Part shown: positions 28,244 through 38,000 of the stretch, one piece after another
Layout: every line of letters starts with the position of its first letter
Numbering within the stretch: position 1 is the stretch's first letter
Source: Lophium mytilinum
Lineage: Eukaryota
Length of the DNA stretch: 64,000 bases
Direction of reading: 5' to 3'
NCBI GenBank assembly: GCA_010093605.1
Contig: MU004188.1
Coordinates: forward strand, 1,999,918 to 2,063,917
Notes under the pieces: generated by a model
The model's database searches: none
Told to the model about the DNA's origin: nothing
Seen by the model: only the letters and a program-made list of their open reading frames with translations
Translations under genes and position numbers: made by a program

Positions 28244-31200
28244 ATGACAGAAACCCTTCCGAGGAGTACAACGACCGAGATCACAGGCGAGCTATTCCCG
28301 ATACGCGTAGCTACTCACTTATGCCGGCAAAGACTTCAAGAATGTGCCAGTCAACCGTCCCTGCGGAAGGCTCACTGGGCGGAGAACCGTTCCAGTGACT
28401 TCAATCTGTGGGATTCTGGAGTTGGCGCCTGTGCGAACGAGCTGAATTGTTTGGATAAGCGTTTAGAGAACGACGTCTCTGCGCAGAAGGTCGTCATCGG
28501 CGCCCTCAGCACTCTTGCAGCGTGGACGACGAAGTGTAGGCAGCTGGCAGAAGCGGTAGAACCTAAGACAGGATCGCCGGACCATCCAGCTAGGAGCAAT
28601 TCACTGTCTACCAACGAACAAAGCACAGATCCAACCGACAGCATAACGCTGGACCAAGCGAAGAGCACGGTTGAAGGATTGCTCAAGATTCTTGTTGATC
28701 TAGAGATTGCAATAAGGAAGGCTGGTACAGCTTCTCGCGTGAGGAGGGCGGACCGCACATTCAACAAACGAAGGCATCGTTATGCGGAGCTCTCGAATCA
28801 TCTTGAGTTCATTCTACGAGTCTCCGGAGCCCCTCGACGGAACCATAGCTCATCGGACCAACGCTCTGCCCTGCCTGAAACCGACGAAATTGATGTCGGA
28901 TCTGCACTTGACCAATTATGGGGAGAGAAAGCTCCTTTACGTCCTGAGCAGCAAATACTCCTCCTTGCCAACATAAAGCGCACTGACCGTTTCCTGTTCT
29001 ACAAGGGGCGGCAAGTGCAGTTACAATCCGAACAAGCGGAAAAGCCTTCTCAGGCTATACGTGTCCAGGTCAGGTCATCTCGCGCCCAGCCTTCAGATTC
29101 CCCCTTAAAGGGCGATGAGCAACCTCGGCAATTATTGAAACCATTGACGAGCAAACATGCTACATCAGCTCAGTCTCAGCATTCCACTGGCACCACTAAT
29201 CAGGCATCGGATTACGTACCCAGTTCATCGCTGGAGAAAGCCACCGAGGTGACATCCCCAGATGTTGCAGCAACGGCAATCGCCCTTCGCGCCGATTATC
29301 CTAAACCCCCAAAAGATAAGACGAAGTGCCCCTACTGTTTGATACCTTTCAGAGGCGAAGCTGACGACATGCGTCGGTGGAAGTAGGTTCTATCCATGGC
29401 CCCACCGCAGACAAATATACTGATCATGTAGGAAACATGCCGCGGAGGACCTTCAGCCTTACACGTGCTACTTGCCGAACTGTCCCCAACAGTATCCTTT
29501 TTTCAATACTTTTGACGCATGGAAAGCACATGTCCTCTCAAATGAGCACAAGCGGTTTGAAGGGCGGACTTGTTTGCTTTGCCGATTTTCCTCGAATCCC
29601 ACCGAGGAATCAATCTTCCTGGACCATATTCAAGACAAACACTCCAACGCGTTTGCAAAAGAGTCTTTAACAAATTTTGGAAATATGTGCCGTCGATATA
29701 CGGCGCCGGCATTAGATAGATGTCCGGTATGTTCGACATACGCAAATGATTGGAAACTACGCAAAGATAGTGATATGAAGTTTGAGCCTAGAGTCAAGAC
29801 ATTTCTGGAACATATCGGGCAGTGTATGCACTACTTTGCTTTGAGAGTGCTGCCAGAGACCGAGCCCGAGAAGACTGGGGACGGATCCGGCCAAAACCTG
29901 ACCAATGGCACACCCATCGAGGACCGATCGTGGCCGTCTTGCTATCTGCATGTTTCACATCACTCAGACGGACTTACAGAGACTGAGCTGGAAGTATTTC
30001 CAGAGCTCACCCACCATGACCTGGTTGATAACGTTCGAAGAATGCAGACTTGGGTTGAGTTAACGGAAATCATGGACGATCCAGATTCCCTGGACGAAAC
30101 GATGCGCTTGGACCGTAGATATGACATGAACCACAGGGAAAATTCAATCGAAGCTATTGAAGGTGAGGCTACTGGTGATGTTGAGCTGGATGATGAAGAC
30201 TTCCTTTTTGAGTCATCTCCTTCGAGCACACTGGAAGACAGACTGTTGAAATCTTTTGTAGCCAGCACTTTCGATTCTCAGAGGCAGTCTTATCTTCCCG
30301 AAGGTCGTATTGTAGAGCTGGTGACAGCGGAGAGTATCACAGAGGAATTGGAGTTGGATCATCTTGACCCGAGCACCGCAGCCAAGTTCGATCAATCTCG
30401 GCAAGCTGAACTCGTCGACTGGATCCTCAACGGCGCTAGAAAATTATTCGCCATTTGCGTCGAGTGCGGCATTCTACCTCGGCGCAACATGCTGGCAACG
30501 TTTTTGCGATTCCGGAAGTACGGTTTTGATGATAAGAGCCTGCCTATTCGAAACCCAAGAGACAACTCTAGGCCGACTGCGAGCAACTCACCGGATCCAG
30601 TTTTTCACGAGCAGGTATGGTCCATGTTCAAACTCCACAACTTCTACGAGAAGCAGTGGAAGTATCTCGTTCCCGTCTTCGGATCAAATCAGTATGACTA
30701 CGATCTTCCATCTGATTGCATTCTACCTTTTCAAACGGATAGAGACGACACCGGACAAGGGGCCTTCAGTAGCGTCTACAAGGTCAAAGTTCACCCTGAT
30801 CATATGAGACTTGAGAATTCCGAGAAGGTAAGCTAGATTTCCAGTGTTTTGTCATGTTGTTGACACCTTCTCTAGGTTGCTATCAAGGAGATCAAAGGCA
30901 TCAAATCCAGAGGGGACGACGCGATGAACACTAACGCAAACTGGGAACGGGAAGCAAGAGCACTGCGAACGATCGGTACCATCAAGAACGAGCATATAGT
31001 GAACTGCATTGCTGCCGTAAGGAGAGGCGATAGTCGCTACTTCATCTTTCCTTGGGCAGACGGAGGCAGCCTCAGAGATTTATGGGAGGAAACTCCTAGG
31101 CAATTTCTGGAGAGGCGAATCATCAAAGAAGTTATTGTTCAGCTCCGTGGTATTGCAGATGCCCTTGACAGACTCCACAATTTCCGCGGAGCGAAGGCAC

Positions 31201-34200
31201 ACCAGGGAGATACACCATCGACACAAGTGCCATCGATACAAGTGGTTGATCCAGATGAGATGGCACAAGACGAAGACGGGTACTTTGAAAGCACCGAGCC
31301 TATAGAATCCATTCGACACGGTGACTTGAAACCGGAGAATATCTTAAGATTTCCATCTAGCACATCCACCATCGGCGAACTTCGTATAGCAGATATGGGA
31401 CTCGCAAAACGTCACAATGTCGAAACAGAACTTCGAACTCGCCTTTCGAGTACGAGATACGGCACTATGCTATACGAAGCACCTGAGGTAGTGACCCTAG
31501 ACCAAGCCAGATCACGGCTCTACGATATTTGGTCCATGGGATGCATCACATTAGAGTTCATCATCTGGATGCTATATGGGAATGACGAACTCAAGAACTT
31601 TCACAAGCATCTCCAGGGTGATAAATACCAAACGTCTCAATTTTTTGAAATACGGAACATTGATGGGCGCAAACATGCCGCGGTGCATTCAGTCGTTCGA
31701 TACTGGATAGACTATATACGCAACACGGACCCCGAGTGCTCGCAGAACTCTGCGATGAATGACCTTCTCAGCATCGTTCAGGAGAACTTACTCGTTGTCT
31801 CCTTTCCTCCTAGAAGGGCAGGCTCAATGTCCTCTGCTCAACCCCTATCGGACGCCAATCTAGGAGAAAAATCCACTCGATATCGTGCAACAGCTAGAGA
31901 ATTCCGAGAATCTCTTGACAGGATACTGGAGAAGGTAAGTAAAGACCCAACATATCTACTGACGGGGAAAAGCCGTGCAAATTTGCAACCACCGGCAACC
32001 ACGCGAACGAATCTTCTAGCGGTCGATCGTCCACTCAGAAGTGGGATGCTAGCCGATTTTGCGACGGAGAGGTACAGACACCCGAGCCTTACGTTGAAAT
32101 CTAGCTTGAGAGGAGTAAGTCTCATCTACCTATCTTTAACAACAACCTACTAAATCAGATAGGATGTAAGTTCATGTGTGACTTGCGACTCAAGGACTTC
32201 ACTGACAGCAAGTTTCATTTGCTCCTAACAGTATGTAAGTAATTTGTGAGCAACAATGAAACTCTCCGCATACCACGGTTGACTACACTGAAGACTGATT
32301 CGAAATTTCAAGCATAATATGGTAAGTCACATTGTTCCTACTTATGCTTGATATGTACTGATTAGTGTTTGTAGCCGGTACGTTCGGCTTTGAACAGCAA
32401 TCAAGATCCTACTAACCTGAAGGTGATTCGACTCCAAAGCATGTAGGTCGATCGCAACACCACACCCATAGATCCATCGAACCACTAATTCGAAGAAAAA
32501 GCTGGCCGACTGGGAATTTCCTGTGGATAATGAATTTGCGACTGGCGTTTTCAGAACGTGGGGCCTACACATACCACATGATCCGCATTTTAAGGCCCCT
32601 ACGAAATTGTGTCAACGATGCAATGTCCTCAACTTCTGGGCCGGGGGCTTCGATCTTGAAGACAGGATAGCAGATCTGGAAGCGAGAGCATCAGACTGTG
32701 ACTTCTGTCGAATGCTTCGTTCCATTTGCGCAAAGCATGAGGCGGACCACTTCCCAAAAGTACGATTCGAGCGATCGCAATCGAACCTCGTACTAGTATC
32801 TCCCAAGCCAGTAATAGCGCTATCAATTCTTCGAAGTTACGGTAAGTGTAACAAGGTTCCGGCCTATCTATTACGAAGGCCTGCAGTCGCTAACAAACGC
32901 CGGTCAAGAACTGGAGACTCCGCTTCCCATCCAGCTTGGGTTGCCTGAGCTACTTGCAGCGGGATCGGATGGCAGCTTCGACATCATGAGGGCTTGGTTA
33001 GACGATTGCGATACGAACCATGAAAACTGCCAACCCGATCGTGGTCCATACCAAACCAGTTCATATCCGACCAGACTGATTGATGTCGGCCATTCCAAGA
33101 GCCCCAAATTACGGCTTGTGGTTCCACGGACTGACTTCCAACCTTTTGATCAAGACAACGGCGGCGCACGAGAAGAGCAATGGATCGCTCTCTCCCATTC
33201 TTGGGGTAACCCTGCAAAACAGAATATGTTCTGGACAGGAAAAGATAACATCGAATCTTTCAGGCGAGACATTCCCTTCGAACAGCTACCAGCGACCTTT
33301 AGAGACGCCGTAATAACAACAAGAGCCCTTCACGTTCGCTACCTGTGGATTGATGCAATATGTATCCTCAATGGACCAGACGGCGACTATCACGAAGAAG
33401 CGAAACGTATGGAGGATGTGTTCAGTGGAGCACACTGTGTTATTGCTGCGAGTCGAGCCACAAGCCAAGCGGACGGATTTCTTAAGCCAAGACCACAACG
33501 CGAATATGTGAAATTCCAACGCGGCAGCGAGAAACCTTTCTACATGTGTGACCCAGTTGACAACTTCAATCAGGACGTCTTGGAAGGGCCTCTTAACCGG
33601 CGTGGCTGGATATTGCAGGAACGCGCTCTCGCGCGGCGCACGATCTTCTTCACAGATACACAGACATATTTTGAGTGCGGTAATGGCGTGCGGTGCGAAA
33701 CACTCGTAAAGATGCACAAGTAAGTCGACGAACTTACATTGTCTTCAAAGACTAGGAAAATGTATTTCTGGTGCTAACTTCTCTCAGCAATATGGCAGAT
33801 TTCCTTGGAGATCCACACTTCCCCAACAAAGCTATGAGTCGACCCCGAAGCATGATGATTCTACACGTTCAAGATTTGTTCCGGCAGTACTCTAGACTAG
33901 CGTTTTCACACAACGCAGACAGACCTGTCGCCATCGCGGGAATTGAGAACCGGCTTAAGAAGGCTTTAGGGGTGGGCGGCAATTATGGCGTGTTTGATGA
34001 CGGCCCAGGTGGAGGTCTCTTCCACCGTGGTCTGCTCTGGCAGCGTGGAGAGGACGAAGAATCTCTGACCCCTATTCATTTTACGGATGGCGGCAACTGG
34101 AGGGTGCCTACATGGTCATGGATGGCCTACGACGGGGGTATCGATTACCTCGACCCTCCGTTCGACTCCGCTGAATGGGAAACGACTGATGTCCGACCCC

Positions 34201-34547
34201 CTAAACGCTTCGGGGATTTTGCAGGATTTGAGGATGGAGCTATAATGCTTCCAGCTATAGTGCGGGACTTCAGCGTTGCTAGAAGAGGCATAGACGAGGT
34301 CAAGTTAGTTTACGATACTGATAAGCGCGACGGCATCGACAGGCAACGGCCCCAGTGCGTTGTTGTTGCGAAGTCTAAAACGGAGATGACGGCACGAGAA
34401 AAGACTTATTATGTCCTAATAGTTGTCCCCTCTTCTGCGCTTCACGGGTTTCCTAGCGAAACGATGTATGTGCGAGTGGGTGTAGGAAGAATGTTGGGAA
34501 AGTACATCGCTTTAGGTCAGCCGGGTATTCCGAGTATTATCAGCTGA
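28244..34547 (+). CDS. Helical N-terminal / C2H2 zinc finger - Ser/Thr protein kinase - HET domain protein, ~1900 aa, 11 exons including 5 micro-exons
   Basis: Exons 28244-29382, 29432-30827, 30876-32114, 32163-32165, 32232-32234, 32313-32321, 32375-32377, 32440-32442, 32502-32841, 32909-33719 and 33788-34547 give one open frame. C2H2 motifs: CPYC..WKKH..DLQPYTC, CLLC..HIQDKH, CPVC..HIGQCMH. Kinase motifs: GQGAFSSVYKV, VAIK, HGDLKPEN, DMG, APE, DIWSMG. HET motifs: PTRLIDVG, ALSHSWG, YLWIDAICI, RGWILQERALA, PTWSWMA. Confidence 0.85.
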
Positions 34548-35056: not shown

Positions 35057-38000
35057 TTACACAGAGACATCTTCGGCCCCTTCGTTGCCGGCGCTTCGCA
35101 TCAAGCTATCGAAGAATGCCATGTCAACGCCCTGGAATGCCCAGTCATCTCCTCCTGCGGTCAGCCCAGGATACTCTCCATGCGGTAAGAGTGGATCGGA
35201 ATAGCCGCTGGGTAGTTGTTGGGATGCACAATGCGTAGCCATATCTTGGGCCTCAGGAGCCGGAACAGGAAGATCTCCCAGCTGTGCTTGGCTTCTGGCG
35301 TAAGGATCTGGTTCTCCTAGTGATAGCAACGGAGAGACCTCGACATGGCCGTAGACATCATGAGCCTGTGTAGGAACCACCCCTTTGCTCACGCCCTCGC
35401 GAGCAATCTTGATAATGCCAAAATACGGAATATGCACGCTCACTCCAGCATCATCATCTTGATCCGGTGGCGCTGTCCCAGGTCCCGCTTCCTCTACACT
35501 CACCCTCCCAGCGCAGCCTAAATGCCCATCCGCCGTCTCCACCTCAATCGCCAGCAACCGCCGCAGCAGATCCGCGCTCTGCGCACTAAGCGCATCTGCG
35601 TTAACACGATTCAACTCCTTCATATTCTCCTGCGCCTGCTCAATCATCGCGCGATCGCTCAGATACTGATGCGCCAGCAGATTTTCCGCCTCTGGGGCGC
35701 GGTGGCTGTCTAGGTGTGCCAGTAGCAACGTCATAGCAGCCATAAGCGCGAGGAAGTCGATGATGCGGCAGCTAAACGCAATGCGGTTGAAGCTGCGCAG
35801 CGTAATGAAGCGCGAGAGTACCTCCCGCGAGGCATTGACGCACGTGATGCGGGAGTATTCGTATTGGCGATCGGCCGAGGAGGAGCGCAGCATGTAGGGG
35901 AGGTGGAGCTGGTTGAGGAGGTTGTAGTGGAGGACCTGCGCGAACAGTCGTATTGTGTCCCAGAAAAGGGCTTCTGAGTTCGTTGAGGCGGTTTCGAGAT
36001 TTGGAGACAGCCACCATTTGCTGGGGAGCCCCCTGGCTGCTCGTTGCAACTCTACATCGAGTGTGCGAGTTAAAGCGAGGTCTTGGGAGCTGGGATTAGA
36101 TTCGTTGCGTTCCAAGATTCGAGAGGCGAGGACGCAGTGAATTCGCTCCAGGCGGCCCAACGGGGTGTCGTTTGCGAGCATTGCGTCGGAGGCTATACTA
36201 CGGTCCAGGGAACCTTGGGGAAGGCCCAACATGAGACAGAGCTGGCGGTCCAAAAAGAGCGTGCGGAACCACATGATTTGTGGGTGATATTCAGTCTTGG
36301 GATCAAGCACTTTGAATTGTGCCCGATTATCCGACCGGTTGAGACCCATCAGCTGTGCGATACTCATAGCTCTCCGATTCGCTACCCAGCCTCGTCGGAG
36401 ATTCCCCATGTTCATCTTCGACGTGTTAGTGCACATGGCGTGTTTGTGGCTTACAACGAGGGGGCTTGTAGAGTGAAAGGCCATAAGTCTGTGCACACTG
36501 GTTCACCACCGCTTGGGGTAACTCCATCAGACTTTGAAAAGCTAGGGGCAATGTCATGTTTCATGCAGTGTATATAAGACTGCTTCTTGAGGAACTAGCT
36601 GCTTAGCAGCTAGGCTACCCCACACGGCGGTGTCCAGAGAGCAAGATTTGAGCCAAGCCGTGATGAACCCGTGTGCCCAGATTTAAAGCGTACCTAGTAC
36701 AGTGACAGGCCACAGGTCTGGGCACACTGGTTCGCCACCGCTTGAGGTACCCCAGCAGGCTCTCGAGGACTCAATGCCTACACCAAGTGTTAAGCAGTAC
36801 AAATTAGACTACCTCTTGACTAACTAGCTGCTCAGCAGCCAGGCTACCCCGAACAGCGGTGGCGAGTAAGCAAGCTGGAGCCGCGCCGTAATGAGTCTGT
36901 GTACCCAGACTTATGGCCTAGTACTGTACCTTACTAGGGGACCTTACGCACCTGATACATAGTCTCGATCATAACGCACTCTAGACCTTCAAGGCTCCCA
37001 AGGAGCTCGTCGTTTGTTGTAACGAGACTACTAGCACGATCTGCTAAGCGTTCCATGATAGCTCGTGGCGATTCCGATAGGCCCCTTGCCTCCTCGTGAA
37101 GATCAGGAGGAACATGGAGTAAAACTTAAAGTTGCAGTACATATGTCAGCGCAAGTTTCACGAAGGGTTTTTAGGACAGCTACTGGCTCCCCTGCTGTCA
37201 ACTGTCACCATGTGCCACTTAAACGTGTTCAAACGTCATTTTGACGTAAGTTGCTTGTTCCGGGGACAATAAGACCAGAGAGACTGGTATGAACTAGAAC
37301 GTTACGTACAAATGGCGAGCTGGAGCATGTGCCTCGATATCAGAACGGGATGCACGTTGGGTCCCGGAAACTCCAGTAAGCTTTCGGGTAGTTTCAACCC
37401 GTTTTTGTCGAGCGTGGTGTACGGTATAGTCAACACTTCGTGGGCGAGGGCGCAATGGTGACGGCTGGCTTTGCATAGCTTCTTCATGTCTTCGCGCGAA
37501 GGAAATGCGTCATGCAAGACGTGGCACAACTTCTCGAATTTACCCTGTGGGGCTGGCAGATCAGCAGCTGCATCTCCGCCATTCCCACCGGCTTGGTCCT
37601 AGTAAATATAGTCAGTAACAATCAGAGGAGTATAGGTGTCATTTTGAGGGCACATATATCTCTCTGAGGACCCTCATGCCTAATCAGTTTCGTAATTCAA
37701 TGATGTCAAGTTCTCGAGCCTGTACATGGGGTATCGAGCTTTCGGTACTGAGTGATTTGCGCGGTAAGGCCAATATCTATGGTGCAGAAAAAAAGAACCA
37801 GATTCAGGAGCTCAAGGACTAGACATCGTTCATCTATGAATCTGAATAGGTATGAGAGGCTTCAGAGAAGTACACTCTTGACCCAAACGACACGCAGACA
37901 CGTTCGAGCTATGTAATAAGCCTAAAGAGTAGAAGGATCAAGGTGCAATAGAGACGAGCTAGAATCCCAGGCGCGGAAAAATGACACCATGAACATTCGA

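Follow-up and report, generated by a model that had tools for sequence, protein, structure and literature searches.

Micro-exons of 3 nt and even 1 nt have been described in animals and plants, where they are often missed by annotation, and small groups of them are documented for human RPS24, with three consecutive micro-exons (3, 18, and 22 bp), and for a rice gene with adjacent 5-nt and 12-nt exons (PMC8831610; PMC12207440). In filamentous fungi, a regulated micro-exon whose inclusion changes the protein was reported for Trichoderma virens Xlr2, and that report states that functional micro-exons were previously undescribed in filamentous fungi and that fungal micro-exons have been little studied (PMC11121469). 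Here, we analyzed a 64,000-nt stretch of the Lophium mytilinum genome (assembly GCA_010093605.1, contig MU004188.1, positions 1,999,918 to 2,063,917 of the forward strand; hereafter the window, with positions counted from its first letter), in which the linker between the protein kinase and HET domains of a predicted gene is cut by six complete GT..AG introns of 48–78 nt at 32115-32501. The exons between these introns comprise 3, 3, 9, 3, and 3 nt. This array is probably a conserved architecture of the kinase-HET gene family rather than a peculiarity of Lophium. In the literature covered, outside of which subscription journals lie, our searches met neither a run of 3-nt exons in a fungus nor an intron in a kinase-HET linker, nor any earlier description of the array as a conserved gene architecture.

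The described systems resemble the array in some respects and differ from it in others. Animal and plant micro-exons are likewise very small, flanked by GT..AG introns, and included in mRNA; in the accounts cited above they occur singly or in twos or threes, among long introns and in exon-defined genes, whereas the fungal arrays contain up to seven one-codon exons in a row, separated by introns of 46–140 nt, and are conserved across a family. The Xlr2 micro-exon likewise belongs to a filamentous fungus, but it is single and regulated, and no array is described in its report (PMC11121469). Two features of spliceosomal micro-exons are present in the array, in that the flanking introns are canonical and contain a branch site, the frame is kept, and conserved residues are encoded. 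The micro-exon genes of Schistosoma contain runs of symmetric exons, 6 nt and longer, by which small secreted proteins are largely encoded and whose skipping generates variants. Symmetric runs of exons in multiples of 3 nt are common to both, but the exons of the array are mostly one codon long and belong to the short linker of a large intracellular protein, and the one RNA contig gave no sign of skipping. Stwintrons of the Pezizomycotina, in which an intron interrupts a splice signal of another intron and nothing is left between them, require consecutive splicing reactions. We rejected this class for the array, since its introns are in tandem with intact signals and the 3–9 nt between them stay in the RNA.

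The array in the window consists of the following features.

32115-32162, + strand: array intron 1, 48 nt, GTAAGT..TAG, phase 0, predicted with support from comparison.
32163-32165, + strand: micro-exon GAT (Asp), which by comparison matches the conserved D or E before Y.
32166-32231, + strand: array intron 2, 66 nt, GTAAGT..CAG, phase 0, predicted from sequence signals.
32232-32234, + strand: micro-exon TAT (Tyr), present in the loose end of an RNA contig and joined there directly to CATAATAT.
32235-32312, + strand: array intron 3, 78 nt, GTAAGT..AAG, phase 0, missing from the RNA contig.
32313-32321, + strand: micro-exon CATAATATG (His-Asn-Met), between TAT and CCG in the RNA contig.
32322-32374, + strand: array intron 4, 53 nt, GTAAGT..TAG, phase 0, missing from the RNA contig.
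32375-32377, + strand: micro-exon CCG (Pro), present in the RNA contig and aligned with a Pro of D-Y-x-x-P-P.
32378-32439, + strand: array intron 5, 62 nt, GTACGT..AAG, phase 0, retained in the RNA contig.
32440-32442, + strand: micro-exon CAT (His), with the joint 32442->32502 in the RNA contig.
32443-32501, + strand: array intron 6, 59 nt, GTAGGT..AAG, phase 0, whose joint in the RNA contig is recorded as 'skips 59, GT..AG'.

Splicing of the array gives ...SLRG-D-Y-HNM-P-H-LADWEF..., which contributes the last seven codons of the linker. A preliminary description of the sequence had proposed these six introns and five micro-exons, and every coordinate was reproduced. The first donor (32115) and the last acceptor (32501) lie on codon boundaries of the open reading frames (ORFs) on the kinase side (30876-32153) and the HET side (from 32472), so that all six junctions are in phase 0; the frames thereby confirmed the earlier claim that every array exon is a whole number of codons. 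The stretch measures 387 nt (129 x 3) and has a G+C content of 0.40, against 0.51 for the window. The donors (GTAAGT in introns 1–4, GTACGT in intron 5, and GTAGGT in intron 6) scored 7.5–9.6 bits, and each intron contains a branch-like box, which in intron 5 is a perfect TACTAAC. The other four introns of the gene measure 49, 48, 67, and 68 nt, and as the array introns are of comparable size, each array unit resembles an ordinary intron of this genome.

We searched for such arrangements with a chain detector, which requires a donor GT[AG]NGT, a branch-like motif, and an [ACT]AG acceptor within 45–100 nt and gaps of 3–9 nt between units. On both strands of the window, the only chain of more than one unit was this array, with six units. 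In 100 block shuffles of the window, the longest chain had one unit in 86 and two units in 14. RNA folding over the array was not unusual (z -1.16 for the whole region and -0.9 to +0.9 for single introns), and coding-sequence duplication around it was limited to repeats of 13–14 nt, at chance level. In a 13-nt inverted repeat (32305-32317 and 32342-32354, 92% complementary), one arm spans the acceptor of intron 3 and the beginning of the 9-nt exon, and the other lies inside intron 4.

Evidence from RNA came from one public run, whose kind is recorded as a guess ('RNA?') and in which 0.75 of the gene's sampled words were present. Two contigs of this run match 31600-33000 without mismatch. One of them, of 1154 nt (0 mismatches), reads TAT, CATAATATG, and CCG, followed by intron 5 and then by CAT and 32502 onward. 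Its left end is aligned from 32374 and is preceded by an 11-letter loose end, TATCATAATAT, which together with the G at 32374 gives TAT, CATAATATG, and CCG. This contig lacks both 32443-32501 and the control intron 32842-32908, and it therefore derives from spliced RNA. Introns 3, 4, and 6 were thus removed exactly as predicted in this single contig, and the joins TAT-CATAATATG, CATAATATG-CCG, and CAT-32502 supported the splice units of the preliminary description. Exon skipping was not seen in this one contig, in which rare variants would be invisible, and the sole departure from the predicted splicing was the retention of intron 5.

The best protein match, P0001 (99% identity), is a HET-domain protein of L. 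mytilinum, and it suggests a different structure without micro-exons, in which one long intron (32115-32501 or 31977-32495) separates the two parts or the kinase and HET belong to separate genes. P0001 reads ...LLTGKSR and then KKLADWEF, and thereby skips 31977-32495, that is, 46 codons of open frame and all micro-exons. The other RNA contig, which covers 31600-31975, stops near the P0001 donor, and the x-Y motif described below is missing from 38 of the 100 public homologue models that have both flanks. These points are countered by the 1154-nt contig, which contains micro-exons joined together and uses the acceptor at 32501, so that this alternative is largely refuted. P0001 also contradicts the contig at 32842-32908, where its intron differs, and lacks the VAIK stretch of the kinase, and it starts inside exon 2; these conflicts, together with that at the linker, indicate that the public model is unreliable here. 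Moreover, no ATG lies in frame ahead of the Cys-rich stretch in the HET-side ORF, and the micro-exons restore a conserved motif. We consider a structure without micro-exons scarcely credible. The preliminary description had also noted an alternative acceptor at 32495 that would add KK: an in-frame AG is present at 32494-95 and is used by P0001, but the contig uses 32501 and homologue exons begin with L. The other contig ends at 31975 without a loose end, within 1–2 bases of the donor that P0001 would use (after CGT 31976), and this end may mark a gap in coverage or a minor splice form.

Comparison with homologues showed what the micro-exons encode. Among 120 listed homologues, 106 have both the kinase and the HET Pfam domains, in keeping with the preliminary assignment of both to one gene, and the D, Y, and P of the micro-exons fall on a conserved D-Y-x-x-P-P immediately before L-x-D-W-E-F. 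In many homologues, the kinase-HET join ends in A-D-Y-T-L-P-P-L-K-D-W-E-F, and x-Y occurs no more than 8 residues ahead of the L..W exon in 62 of the 100 public models that have both flanks. The linker conservation that the preliminary description had proposed to look for in an alignment of homologues was therefore found for D-Y and P. The distance from Y to W, counted by hand, is 9 residues in the window gene and in most arrays and 8 in intron-free Pleosporales-like genes; the CAT (His) exon thus fits the usual spacing of arrays. An AlphaFold model of an intron-free homologue, P0014 (mean predicted local distance difference test score, pLDDT, 75; predicted template modeling score, pTM, 0.48), has pLDDT values below 50 at residues 532-569, including D566-L569, and is confident from L572, the counterpart of the L with which the exon LADWEFPVDN begins. 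In this model, the residues of the micro-exons correspond to a conserved short motif that ends a probably flexible linker, directly before an ordered module on the HET side.

These data bear on a further proposal of the preliminary description, in which skipping of the exons in any combination would yield as many as 32 linker variants, all in frame, and so tune a site of phosphorylation or cleavage. All junctions are in phase 0 and the exons are multiples of 3 nt, both here and in the 17 solved arrays described below, and the encoded residues lie in the low-confidence, probably flexible stretch of the P0014 model, as such a generator would have it. On the other hand, the one contig contains no skipped form, and the spacing of 9 residues from Y to W in the window gene and most arrays fits constitutive inclusion. 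D-Y, and often P, are conserved across the family, and the strong conservation of D-Y makes it unlikely that variants lacking it are the purpose. In short fungal introns, the usual alternative outcome is retention rather than skipping. We therefore regard the generation of linker variants as improbable.

To examine the linker in other fungi, we scanned metagenome contigs with the kinase-exon alignment, which yielded 80 fungal loci, of which 44 contain both kinase and HET-side exons. The motif lies in one uninterrupted ORF in 16 of the 44 (A-D-Y-T-L-P-P-L-K-D-W-E-F or a close variant), two loci have one intron, which precedes the motif, and 26 have several introns, with the flanking ORFs 300–1270 nt apart (near-duplicates included). 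Matches of 85% identity or more to listed proteins were confined to intron-free loci. An unconstrained path search, which used splice-site scores and an open frame and favored no phase and no exon length, yielded for most of the 26 multi-intron loci several phase-0 introns in a row with 3-nt exons between them, such as I/D/Y/G/S/T/G (L051), D/E/Y/R/N/A/RQ (L062), and N/T/Y/T/H/E/N (L077), where slashes mark introns. In a constrained test, which admits only in-frame paths of phase-0 introns and exons of at most 12 nt and omits six near-duplicates, a path was found in 17 of 21 distinct multi-intron genes, including the window gene, and in 0 of 100 shuffles of each. The path of L022 in this test, P/D/Y/A/H/P/P, was the same as that read by eye. 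The largest arrays have eight introns and seven consecutive one-codon exons. In 15 of the 17 solved paths, the Tyr codon stands alone as an exon; the exceptions are L066, which reads WL in both searches, and L068, in which Y lies in a 12-nt exon.

In 14 arrays of the unconstrained search, the 97 introns have a median length of 65 nt (range, 46–140 nt), and 72 of the 83 micro-exons are exactly 3 nt; GTAAGT (31) and GTGAGT (18) together account for 49 of the 97 donors. Chains of at least three units were all located at linkers, with none elsewhere in 406 kb of plus strand outside the linkers or in 437 kb of minus strand. Two chains that had been scored outside the anchored interval proved to be linker arrays, namely those of L050, which has no HET anchor, and L062, with a 4-nt overshoot.

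Several public models are consistent with arrays that gene callers passed over. The Fusarium models P0099, P0103, and P0106 have exactly seven residues, including the Tyr, fewer at the linker than P0107. In the Hyaloscypha finlandica model P0086, ...SRQN is joined straight to EFPVDN; at the position of this gap, the closely related locus L022 (4014-4583), placed by the tree near an H. finlandica protein, contains seven predicted one-codon exons followed by the first part of another exon. P0113 contains D-E-Y-R-N-A, the residues of the L044, L054, and L062 arrays. From these sequence comparisons, we predict skipped arrays in named genomes such as those of Fusarium and Hyaloscypha, with models of Colletotrichum, Cytospora, and Apiospora that omit the motif as further candidates, and kinase-HET proteins are probably mis-modelled or split in databases. 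Two kinase-only models, P0121 and P0122, may represent genes split at the array. A search with residues 530-720 of P0103 among shorter proteins gave two matches, both kinase-only models, neither of which spans the linker.

We then considered the age of the array. A quick, unrooted maximum-likelihood tree of the kinase (64 rows) was divided into two halves, with arrays in both. One half contains the window gene (six introns), L028 (three introns), and all the closest intron-free genes, and the other contains nearly all arrays, with L037, L039, L070, and L068 (0, 1, and 3 introns among them) nested among forms with eight introns. Over 39 loci, at least five changes between an array and none or one intron are required. 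The matching of junctions around the D or E and the following Y points to one old array that was repeatedly lost, and the array is thus probably an old family trait lost several times. In the ancestor of the kinase-HET family, nearly every codon of the motif would have been its own exon; the window gene would have lost two introns, inside HNM, and several lineages, including its closest relatives, would have lost all of them. Neighboring introns may have been lost together, most likely via recombination with spliced complementary DNA (cDNA). L039 (5282-5338) and L070 (2103-2159) keep the first array intron only, with the remaining motif contiguous, and this pattern and the loss in blocks fit recombination with spliced cDNA from the 3' side.

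We also weighed the opposite reading, in which the Lophium lineage gained these introns recently and in one local burst, for instance through repeated hits of introner-like elements on a hotspot. It would account for the closest homologues (44–55% identity), which have no introns at the linker, and introner-like elements are known in Dothideomycetes, where, in the account cited, a gene can contain two of them and two introns lie within 15 nt of each other in one species (PMC4457414). However, the six introns are dissimilar and their folds are not unusually stable, and distant homologues in both halves of the tree have arrays with matching junctions around the D or E and Y. A recent burst thus appears very improbable. 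Introner-like elements are described as near-identical copies that are longer than regular introns and stably folded (PMC3609843). The array introns occur in the same fungal class, but we rejected this identity for them because they are of regular size (48–78 nt, compared with 48–68 nt for the gene's other introns), dissimilar among themselves and to the gene's other introns, and not stably folded.

In Cryptococcus, adjacent introns have been reported to be lost jointly, and introns to be gained by expansion of an intron-containing repeat (PMC2395259). The most likely origin of the array would be an ancient expansion of a repeat that comprised one codon and one intron; repeat expansion is the only described route found that would yield many neighboring introns. 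The Cryptococcus introns are, in that account, identical copies in a repetitive region, whereas the array introns are dissimilar and have one-codon exons between them (PMC2395259). No similarity between adjacent introns was detected in the arrays (0 of 94 adjacent pairs with z > 3), and the introns of the window gene are not alike, the best of 45 pairs among the array introns and the gene's other introns having a z of 3.9. As no intron similarity is left, the origin is old and unproven.

Taken together, the best explanation of the whole, which we consider likely, is a real array of six ordinary short introns in a trait shared across the family. Several points weigh against it. The junction support covers three of the six introns in a single contig with a depth of about 6.6, from a run whose kind is guessed. 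Intron 5 is kept in that contig, and no fully spliced molecule was among the contigs seen; the contig starts exactly at 32232, the first base of TAT, the other contig ends at 31975, and nothing from the run lies on the stretch between them. Introns 1 and 2 and the exon GAT are predicted from comparison. The RNA support concerns the window gene, and the arrays at the other loci were derived from sequence, namely from metagenome contigs with several near-duplicates. Four of the 21 multi-intron genes gave no clean path, with a partial path in L028 and none in L031, L065, and L078, although runs of one-codon exons were seen by eye in L065 and L078. The splice-site weights of the path searches are untrained approximations. 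The public model P0001 joins ...LLTGKSR to KKLADWEF and drops all between. The tree is quick and unrooted, so that gain and loss are not formally separable, and both the origin by repeat expansion, behind which no residual repeat signal stands, and the inability to splice adjacent introns together are steps that we infer.

The predicted product of the gene that contains the array begins with a region that lacks any Pfam domain; the protein kinase comes next, and the linker encoded by the micro-exons joins it to the HET domain. The remaining features of the gene are as follows.

28244-34547, + strand: predicted gene of about 1901 codons and 11 exons, based on ORFs, junctions, and Pfam.
29383-29431, + strand: ordinary intron, 49 nt, GTAGGT..TAG, phase 2, placed by frame continuity.
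30828-30875, + strand: ordinary intron, 48 nt, phase 0, separating the Gly-rich loop of the kinase from its VAIK motif.
30876-32114, + strand: kinase exon, which holds the larger part of the kinase domain plus about 190 residues more and has ...SLRG at its end.
32502-32841, + strand: exon beginning LADWEFPVDN..., with a Cys-rich stretch before HET, covered by the contig and conserved in homologues.
32842-32908, + strand: ordinary intron, 67 nt, phase 1, with the contig joint 32840->32908 recorded as 'skips 67, GT..AG (cut +1)'.
32909-33719, + strand: HET exon, with HET PF06985.
33720-33787, + strand: ordinary intron, 68 nt, across which P0001 reads ...MHNNMADF.
33788-34547, + strand: last exon, with the stop TGA at 34545-47.

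The start ATG at 28244 and the first intron (29383-29431) are predicted from the frame; for the second intron (30828-30875), its position inside the kinase domain, which it splits, adds support. Both domains were well above the Pfam cut-offs, with Pkinase PF00069 on 30876-32114 (E 8.9e-23; 81.4 bits, cut-off 31.7) and HET PF06985 on 32911-33720 (E 3.4e-26; 92.8 bits, cut-off 22.5). As judged from the translation, the catalytic motifs of a kinase are present, with VAIK, HGDLKPEN, DMG, and APE-like stretches, and the H-G-D-L-K-P-x-N and D-x-G columns are invariant in 22 aligned family sequences. At 31300-31480, H-G-D replaces H-R-D and D-M-G replaces D-F-G, and both forms are invariant in the 22 aligned members. 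Pfam searches gave nothing significant for the N-terminal region of about 840 residues (28244-30827; best E 0.05–0.15), although its ORFs are long and open, or for the C-terminal 252 residues. A Cys/His-rich stretch at about 29430-29700 weakly resembles a zinc finger. Outside the gene, a 481-codon ORF on the minus strand (35057-36502) weakly matches the fungal-specific transcription factor domain, with E 8.7e-4 and a score of 18.9 bits against a cut-off of 23.

With respect to splicing, each array intron would be recognized alone, by intron definition, given that strong donors and branch boxes are found in all of them. The contacts made at the acceptor upstream of a 3-nt exon and at the donor downstream of it would each cover the whole exon, so neighboring introns are probably removed in turn, and a full-length mRNA would need several rounds of splicing. 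A contig that lacks introns 3, 4, and 6 and keeps intron 5 is compatible at least with stepwise removal. Among the 97 array introns, retention of a single one breaks the frame in 93 cases, by a stop inside the intron in 73 and by a frameshift in 20. In the window gene, retention of intron 1 leads to a stop at 32151-53, inside the intron, as the preliminary description had stated in placing the end of translation at 32153, and retention of intron 5 leads to a frameshift and a stop 169 nt beyond the intron. Because a retained intron usually stops or shifts the frame, incomplete splicing would as a rule yield no HET domain. The net effect would be a slow and leaky route to the HET-bearing protein, either selected or a tolerated relic.

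In the first of these two cases, the array would be a selected splicing gate that throttles or times HET production, with partly spliced RNA giving a kinase-only product or being degraded. A gate would suit the account of HET as a domain that induces cell death and is remotely homologous to TIR domains (PMC10890737); it would also suit the 93 single retentions that end the frame before HET, the retention of one array intron in the sole contig, and the persistence of eight-intron arrays in many divergent lineages. The 16 of 44 loci that are intron-free at the linker show that the array is dispensable, however, stops in retained A+T-rich introns of about 65 nt are expected by chance, and intron positions in these fungi are often conserved without function. 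We hold a selected gate to be a doubtful reading. More specifically, the array could place a splicing fuse of several steps between a sensor kinase and the HET death domain, a fuse that would impose a delay, a low ceiling on the lethal full-length protein, and a kinase-only fallback; we propose this tentatively, as a minority possibility. The idea in the preliminary description that the array is a switch for the toxic HET domain is a possible one. As an alternative or an addition to a fuse, a spacer entirely in phase 0 could let paralogues recombine between modules without breaking the frame. In a weak test, no sign of such module shuffling across the array was found: the main split of the kinase tree was not rejected with the HET-side exon (tree of 30 rows and 111 columns; approximately unbiased test, p-AU 0.87).

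Exons as short as 3 nt are known as rarities, and few searches for them have been made in filamentous fungi. The runs described here appear at one and the same motif in about twenty distinct genes of diverse fungi, one of them with partial RNA support. It bears on the minimum size of an exon and on the packing of introns under intron definition, and it offers a natural substrate for questions on the order of intron removal. For intron evolution, it is a case in which a long series of introns must have been gained at one codon after another and, on the reading favored here, several at a time were lost later. For annotation, it means that gene callers appear to skip one-codon exons, as at the linker in the window, where the public model is wrong. 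For the biology of cell death, the array flags the D-Y-x-x-P-P motif at the kinase-HET junction as worth study, and if the tentative fuse is true, it would represent a post-transcriptional safety catch in fungal cell-death genes that has been kept across several classes of Pezizomycotina.

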